64,000 bases of DNA, taken from assembly GCF_046105845.1 (NCBI RefSeq), contig NZ_CP151004.1. One strand, given 5' to 3'. This DNA comes from Escherichia coli. Lineage in GTDB: Bacteria > Pseudomonadota > Gammaproteobacteria > Enterobacterales > Enterobacteriaceae. The notes beneath the pieces were generated by a model. The model was given only the letters and a program-made list of their open reading frames with translations. It had not been told where the DNA came from and searched no databases. The translations under genes were made by a program, and so were the position numbers. Positions 52,092 to 52,161 of the stretch are shown one piece after another; position 1 is the first letter of the stretch, and each line of letters begins with the position of its first letter.

Positions 52092-52161
52092 AGACGCTTA
52101 CTCATCAGAAATCTGGTATGCTTTAATTAAACCAGTGTCGTTGATGTGTAAGCGTTGATGT
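52092..52161 (+). repeat. ~70-bp imperfect palindromic element, copy 1 (3' of ORF1)
   Basis: AGACGCTTACTCATCAGA...CTGGT...ACCAGTGT...TGATGTGTAAGCGTTGA; outer stem ACGCTTAC/GTAAGCGT, inner stems ATCAG/CTGAT and CTGGT/ACCAG; second copy at 56460-56530. Confidence 0.75.

Follow-up and report, generated by a model that had tools for sequence, protein, structure and literature searches.

A two-copy stem-loop between convergent genes of the espY-yieH islet of Escherichia coli, a candidate RNA 3′-end structure

Two copies of an imperfect hairpin of about 65 nt are present in an AT-rich islet of the E. coli chromosome, both situated between convergent genes, and we consider it somewhat better than an even bet (probability roughly 0.55) that they form a locus-specific RNA 3′-end stem-loop of the terminator or stabiliser type between convergent transcripts. 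The units served would be espY5 facing a yieH remnant and a pentapeptide-repeat gene at one copy and espY4 facing yieH at the other, the hairpin having apparently been copied along with the 3′ end of yieH. On the espY strand, where there is no U-tract, the structure would resemble the stem-loops that end Rho-dependent transcripts and would block 3′-to-5′ exonucleases, most likely so that the 3′ end of the espY mRNA is fixed and protected. On the opposite strand, which has a partial U-tract (good at the first copy, poor at the second) and a downstream sequence with more C than G, it would probably terminate the yieH and pentapeptide-repeat transcripts weakly, by an intrinsic or Rho-assisted route, and protect their ends. 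What could be read directly are the structure, its copy number and distribution, how far the repeated block extends and how conservation is patterned; transcription of the hairpin, the location of RNA 3′ ends at it and the relative weight of the two strands are inferred. Counting for an end structure are folds that beat shuffled sequences on both strands, the convergent placement of both copies and the conservation of the helices. Counting against it are the near silence of the espY genes in published EDL933 transcriptomes, a + strand downstream sequence that is not C-rich and G-poor, and a hairpin that is longer, with a larger loop, than typical terminators. An RNA stability or processing structure had been among the roles suggested for the element in the first-pass annotation, and it is still the leading reading. 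If correct, the element would be an unannotated but ordinary gene-end structure and not a new class of element, of local importance for insulating two ORFan type III effector genes and yieH from convergent transcription and with a bearing on mRNA stabilisation of the espY genes and yieH.

The islet and its two hairpins

The window, a stretch of 64,000 nt, is E. coli chromosome and carries pstSCAB-phoU, bglGFBH, yieL, yieK, the AT-rich islet, yieH, adeP and yieF. The islet is the 'Z-locus' (Z5211-Z5214) of O157:H7, with espY5, a pentapeptide-repeat gene and espY4 beside yieH (Table 1), which has been described as an ORFan island of ~30% G+C without mobility genes (PMC2646131). ORF1, the espY5-type gene, is convergent with both the yieH remnant and the pentapeptide-repeat gene, and the latter is oriented such that its transcript would head to the first hairpin copy. 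The words 'hairpin' and 'palindrom' are absent from the text of PMC2646131 on Z5211-Z5214, and literature searches returned no paper describing this hairpin and no Term-seq data for the Z-locus. In PMC4048457, Z5214 rose under an antibiotic condition. In 29 of the 30 records fetched the hairpin is without annotation, the exception being a record (H30) in which the match partly overlaps the yieH gene. No conserved small ORF spans the hairpin, the sole nearby ORF of note being the yieH remnant.

Table 1 Positions in the 64,000-nt window of the islet features discussed in the text
Feature	Position	Strand	Remarks
Conserved 5′ block before ORF1	49376..49441	+	76% identical to 53822-53887; separate from the hairpin
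ORF1, espY5-type 'type III effector protein' (Z5214 family)	49528..52032	+	RefSeq annotation of identical region
HP1 (hairpin copy 1)	52093..52156	+	Starts 60 nt 3′ of the ORF1 (espY5-type) stop codon
Decayed yieH remnant, beside HP1	52161..52275	-	Two blocks matching yieH
Pentapeptide-repeat protein gene, 395 aa	52503..53690	-	Weak Qnr-type pentapeptide matches
Conserved 5′ block before espY4	53822..53887	+	Partner of 49376-49441
ORF3 = espY4 (T3SS effector EspY4)	53978..56404	+	Convergent with yieH
HP2 (hairpin copy 2)	56461..56525	+	Starts 56 nt 3′ of the espY4 stop codon
yieH (6-phosphogluconate phosphatase), island-type allele	56541..57206	-	NF007854, 442 bits vs cut-off 211

A hairpin had been reported immediately 3′ of ORF1, and the sequence is found there. 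Folding of HP1 with RNAfold gave 20 pairs at -25.3 kcal/mol (z = -4.2) and folding of HP2 gave 23 pairs at -33.0 kcal/mol (z = -6.1), with 0 of 200 dinucleotide shuffles folding as well in either case. The reverse strands (z = -5.5 for HP1 and -5.7 for HP2) and the single-stranded DNA (z = -5.0 and -6.6) folded comparably, so that the comparison with shuffled controls, which the annotation had proposed as a check, favoured the structure for both copies, on both strands, and as RNA and DNA. Each copy forms three helices (20-23 pairs). The basal helix, GACGCTTAC/GTAAGCGTT, is 9 bp long with a G.U pair outermost and a T.T mismatch above it; next come a 6-bp helix (CATCAG/YTGATG), an internal loop, some of which pairs in HP2, and a 5-bp helix, CTGGT/ACCAG, capped by a loop of 13-14 nt. 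HP2 has the three helices of HP1 plus CAC/GTG and a 14-nt apical loop, compared to 13 nt in HP1. Contrary to the earlier description, the middle helix of HP1 in this window is CATCAG/TTGATG, which includes a G.U pair, and does not read CTGAT. The end of HP2 lies 15 nt from the stop codon of yieH on the opposite strand.

A second copy does follow ORF3, and a 26-nt probe from the 5′ arm matches the 64 kb at exactly these two sites (chance expectation 0), but 'nearly identical' overstated the likeness, as the copies are 85% identical over the hairpin. The helices are near-identical and the loops differ, with differences at 1 of 40 helix positions and 9 of 26 unpaired positions (Fisher p = 6e-4).

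The effector modules share one further conserved non-coding block, at their 5′ ends (Table 1). Both 5′ blocks hold a small minus-strand terminator-like hairpin followed by a T-run (49381-49396 and 53826-53843) and share the motif AATGAGCnATTTTTTACAGTATTCA, possibly a promoter or regulator sequence. Within the islet, variation is lowest in the intergenic region that separates the pentapeptide-repeat gene from espY4, taken as a whole (π = 0.019). The hairpin and the 5′ block might together be a pair of cis-elements bracketing the hypervariable espY genes, as shared post-transcriptional control or as a cassette boundary that channels recombination, although we regard this as a long shot.

Several further features of the region were noted. 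The window holds a complete bgl operon with yieL and yieK as well as the Z-locus in the same strain (40013-57206); the bgl operon and the Z-locus have been described as alternative islands (PMC2646131). The yieK-espY5 junction was found in only 17 of 5426 complete E. coli genomes, and in this arrangement the islet takes the place of cbrB-cbrC only. Just 3′ of yieK, at about 48938-48965, is a REP-like GGCCGGA...TCCGGCC hairpin, and at 49043-49110 is an AT-rich imperfect palindrome that is a weak match to the covariance model of the hairpin on the - strand (17.3 bits, E = 0.085 in 88 kb). These two features recur in conserved form at a metagenome locus, L011, that is described below. On the other side of the islet, the island-type yieH is 80% identical to K-12 yieH and is a mosaic of 60-70% identical segments beside segments of >90%, and adeP is 94.8% identical (window 56541-58710 for yieH-adeP). 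These identities are far below the normal level for E. coli core genes, which suggests import from a divergent lineage.

Distribution of the hairpin and extent of the repeated block

The hairpin was present in 1108 of 5426 complete E. coli genomes, at one to two places each (median 2), all of them chromosomal and, in every record inspected, at the yieH locus. A search of 100,044 species (one genome each) with an exact degenerate two-arm pattern matched two contigs only (JAIJJM010000244.1 and JAIJJM010000384.1, our L003 and L004), binned in a 'Collinsella sp.' MAG. These contigs carry the same HP1 and HP2 sequences and flanks as E. coli, and the bin is probably contaminated by E. coli DNA. The phage search gave no hairpin match, and the sole 'plasmid' match, PLSDB NZ_CP141089.1, is a chromosome-sized E. 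coli record of 4.9 Mb. Rfam searches gave no match at E <= 1 over 20 kb and, over 161 nt, only generic miRNA-precursor hairpins (13-19 bits against gathering scores of 43-100), and a covariance model built from 17 variants found no third copy in the 64-kb window. With at most two places per genome and no dispersed or Rfam family, the earlier judgement that the element is not REP, ERIC or BoxC is upheld, and the proposed check for dispersal, carried out over the complete E. coli genomes, found one locus only. A dispersed repeat family or MITE, for which the palindromic shape is the one point in favour, is effectively refuted by the confinement of the element to at most two chromosomal places per genome at this locus, with no phage match and no further copy in the window.

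The block common to both modules begins 5 nt 5′ of the hairpin and continues into yieH or the yieH remnant. Next to HP1, the remnant block 52161-52206 corresponds to the last codons of yieH and its 3′ flank and the block 52218-52275 to yieH-internal sequence at 56828-56885 (45/58 identical, E = 1e-9), with ~240 nt missing between the two; the other alignment has 91/120 identical positions (E = 1e-21). The remnant blocks are 76% and 78% identical to the resident yieH and are nearer to the island-type yieH than to that of K-12, and the residual ORF reads ...SVNKMHHSLGKLNMLH. The spacers between stop codon and hairpin, in contrast, could not be aligned between espY5 and espY4. The repeated unit, judged from these alignments, is the hairpin plus the 3′ part of yieH and not an effector plus a hairpin, and the hairpin would go by descent with the 3′ end of yieH because the shared block spans hairpin and yieH whereas the spacers are unalignable. 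This runs counter to the earlier proposal of a cis element specific to the ORF1 and ORF3 modules.

The effector genes themselves are old paralogues. Their coding DNA is largely unalignable, and at the protein level a 99%-identical stand-in for the ORF1 product (P0122) is 33% identical to EspY4. In a first protein search, near-identical E. coli proteins crowded out all else and no diversity was seen; among 1.8 billion representatives the EspY4/5 family is tiny, with three full-length clusters, namely EspY4, the ORF1 type and P0123, the last being 48% amino-acid identical to ORF1 and encoded at L011. We also looked for the hairpin beside distant EspY homologues in other species, and the loci fetched were all this same yieH-adjacent locus. 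Unalignable spacers next to a block that is 76-85% identical sit badly with a simple tandem duplication of the entire espY-hairpin-yieH module; stacking of two alternative 'effector-hairpin-yieH' alleles, or later copying of the yieH end, fits better. The islet would then have been built by copying or stacking a 'hairpin-yieH' end and not by simple duplication of an effector module, and the hairpin together with the yieH remnant may serve as a marker of Z-locus history. As an evolutionary detail, a hairpin copied together with a yieH end on the border of a hypervariable effector islet is of minor interest.

Such an arrangement raises the question of whether the palindrome acts as DNA, marking a cassette boundary or a hot spot of recombination that made the duplication and promotes exchange or deletion of effectors, and, if it did, divergent effector alleles could be swapped or stacked beside yieH. 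In favour of this, the repeated block has the hairpin exactly on its left edge, the hairpin folds as DNA too, and diversity falls from about 0.09-0.145 left of the hairpins to 0.02-0.05 right of them. In addition, L011 (Logan ERR3329175, 4001-6470) has the order yieK, one espY5-like gene, one hairpin and yieH, and it is HP1-like in the spacer and in the 5′ flank of the hairpin but HP2-like in the interior and 3′ flank of the hairpin. Such a hybrid could have come from recombination between HP1 and HP2 inside the 18-nt 5′ arm that is the same in both, and a single-module ancestral state would fit as well. However, homologous recombination between two identical 18-nt arms needs no special site, the element is confined to one locus, the islet is without recombinase, integrase or transposase by ORFs and annotation (and likewise in PMC2646131), and a cruciform would not prefer G.U-compatible changes on one strand, a pattern described in the next section. 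We regard this explanation as improbable, and the earlier suggestion that the hairpin generated the duplication comes down to its left-edge position and the hybrid hairpin of L011, which are compatible with recombination and are not proof of it.

Conservation of pairing and strand preference

Conservation was assessed with 17 distinct hairpin sequences, taken from E. coli genomes and 22 metagenome contigs. Standard pairs occupied 97.4% of cells in this alignment, compared to 25-42% when the 3′ partners were slid by 1-3 columns. Among the 23 pairs, 14 are invariant and 7 keep their pairing with variation confined to one side, and no pair shows compensatory changes on both sides. The covariation analysis proposed earlier was thus borne out insofar as pairing is kept across the 17 variants, but not as covariation proper, with 0 pairs changed on both sides; because of this, support for the fold comes from conservation and wobble changes rather than from covariation.

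Within the species, the helices stand out against their surroundings. In 18 whole E. coli islands, π was 0.022 for the helices of HP1 and 0.005 for those of HP2. Unpaired positions had values of 0.075 (HP1) and 0.062 (HP2), and values were likewise higher for the spacers (0.09), espY5 (0.145) and espY4 (0.085). The within-species diversity of the effector genes is extreme. (In several strains, among them L002, L009, L028 and L035, the espY genes also carry frameshifts, internal stops, IS5 insertions or deletions.) Segregating sites numbered 6 of 86 at helix positions and 11 of 43 at unpaired positions (p = 0.005), and the apical and internal loops are the most variable parts of the hairpin. 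Taken with the contrast between the copies (p = 6e-4), the pattern speaks for helices under purifying selection and not for mere recent copying.

These contrasts bear most directly on whether the hairpin is a functionless relic, perhaps a former yieH terminator, whose copies are alike through recent copying or gene conversion. We think this unlikely, though several observations are in keeping with it: the hairpin is contiguous with duplicated yieH sequence, double compensatory changes were not seen, the neighbouring genes are barely expressed, and diversity to the right of the hairpins is also low (0.055 and 0.026). Against it, the differences shun paired positions both between the copies and within E. 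coli at the significance levels just given, the helices are identical at 39 of 40 positions while the adjoining remnant has decayed to 76-78% with a 240-nt deletion, and the substitutions that did occur in helices are biased to wobble pairs on one strand.

That bias was seen in the direction of the changes. The five transitions at G-C pairs were without exception C>T when read on the + strand, leaving a G.U pair in the espY-sense RNA but an A.C in the RNA of the other strand, and extra wobble pairs arise on the + strand only, through T.T to G.U in two variants (L008/L009) and A.G to U.G in two others (L010/L024). Two changes point to the - strand instead: in copy 2 of L030 an A-U pair became A.C, and copy 1 has A.C at columns 23-54. 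The + strand fold is the stabler one in 17 of 18 variants, the exception being L034, which has a 1-nt deletion in the apical helix, and the gap between strands is widest in copy 1 of L008/L009, at -33.0 and -30.1 kcal/mol on the + strand vs -22.6 and -18.5 kcal/mol on the - strand; these variants have 16 uninterrupted pairs. Against the island-wide background of 216 C>T and 262 G>A changes, five of five has p ~0.02, and against the intergenic background only (37 C>T vs 23 G>A, hairpin events removed) p ~0.09. With the test resting on 5-10 events, the asymmetry toward the espY-sense RNA is suggestive only.

A strand preference of this kind would also fit an RNA regulatory site, in which a duplex of ~23 bp is recognised by RNase III, as in retroregulation of the lambda sib type, or by a ProQ-type protein, with co-control of espY4 and espY5. 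The duplex is long and near-continuous, reaching 16 unbroken pairs and -30 to -33 kcal/mol in L008/L009, the changes are biased to the espY-sense strand, and both modules also have the conserved 5′ blocks of Table 1. On the other hand, there is no conserved loop or bulge motif and plain end-protection accounts for the same data, and we hold such a site to be rather unlikely.

For the 3′-end stem-loop that we favour, the flanks differ between the two strands. The + strand tails, GAUGUUGG and GAAGUAAG, have no U-tract in either copy, in agreement with the earlier statement that this is not a typical intrinsic terminator on the ORF strand. The accompanying claim that no U-run follows the hairpin holds for the + strand and fails for the - strand, where HP1 is followed by CUUUUC here and by CUUUUUG or CUUUUUC in other strains. 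After HP2 the - strand reads CUAUUCCCUAU and offers only CUAUUCCC in the place of a U-tract. A consensus terminator scan did not call the full hairpin and listed only an inner sub-hairpin at 56471-56486. As for a rut-like composition, that is, C-rich and G-poor, the + strand downstream has 14-22 C vs 17-27 G per 80 nt and does not show it, while the - strand, with 15-20 C vs 9-14 G per 80 nt and U-rich, does so at both copies. Pointers to the - strand are thus the U-tract after HP1, the excess of C over G downstream and the co-travelling of the hairpin with yieH.

Comparison with known systems

Several families of palindromic elements were considered and set aside. An integron attC site would have RYYYAAC at its 5′ base, which is absent, and GTTGATG and GTTGAAG mismatch GTTRRRY; the base here is GACGCTTAC...GTAAGCGTT followed by GAT, GAA or GAC, and no integrase ORF lies nearby. 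A MITE or IS-derived palindrome does not agree with a single locus, no phage copies and an islet without transposase, and REP/BIME, ERIC (IRU) and BoxC elements exist in many copies, as opposed to the 1-2 places seen in each of 1108 genomes.

K-12-type strains, which have cbrB-cbrC in place of the islet, carry a different hairpin of 53 nt (-27.6 kcal/mol; 9441-9506 of L005) between the yieH stop codon and cbrB. Homology between this and the islet hairpin was considered and rejected, since the covariance model scored it at 14.7 bits (E = 0.38 in 88 kb) and in local alignment the post-stop sequences failed to beat 115 of 500 shuffles. The K-12 hairpin is treated here as a functional analogue only.

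A canonical intrinsic terminator has a compact, G+C-rich stem of ~5-14 bp and a loop of 3-8 nt, a description that the present hairpin does not fit because it has 64-65 nt, three helices, an internal loop and an apical loop of 13-14 nt. With bidirectional terminators it shares the plan of a single palindrome serving two convergent units, and the A-run before HP1 (GAAAAG) is a U-run on the other strand; unlike in those terminators, a usable U-tract exists only at HP1 and on one strand, with none on either strand at HP2.

REP elements are reported to limit read-through and to protect upstream mRNA, also between convergent genes (bioRxiv 10.64898/2026.03.23.713779). The likeness to REP, as an extragenic palindrome at gene 3′ ends, is one of analogy and not of family membership, given that the REP family has hundreds of dispersed copies of conserved sequence and the espY hairpin has 1-2 copies of unrelated sequence at one locus. 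The retroregulation hairpin of lambda sib / tI is likewise long and located 3′ of a gene, with a duplex length that could allow cleavage by RNase III. The espY hairpin has no sequence similarity to it, and its duplex is only a candidate for RNase III processing.

The steady-state 3′ ends of Rho-dependent E. coli transcripts lie just 3′ of stable stem-loops without a U-run, which protect against PNPase and RNase II (PMC6061677, Dar and Sorek 2018). Those stem-loops have mapped 3′ ends, whereas the espY hairpins are known from sequence and predicted fold, and the hairpin here, at 64-65 nt with three helices, is unusually long by comparison. What the two have in common is a stable stem-loop, here 56-60 nt 3′ of the stop codon, that lacks a U-run on the gene strand. 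The likeness extends to the genes served, as the espY genes are AT-rich, horizontally acquired and poorly expressed, and genes of this kind are typical targets of Rho and H-NS.
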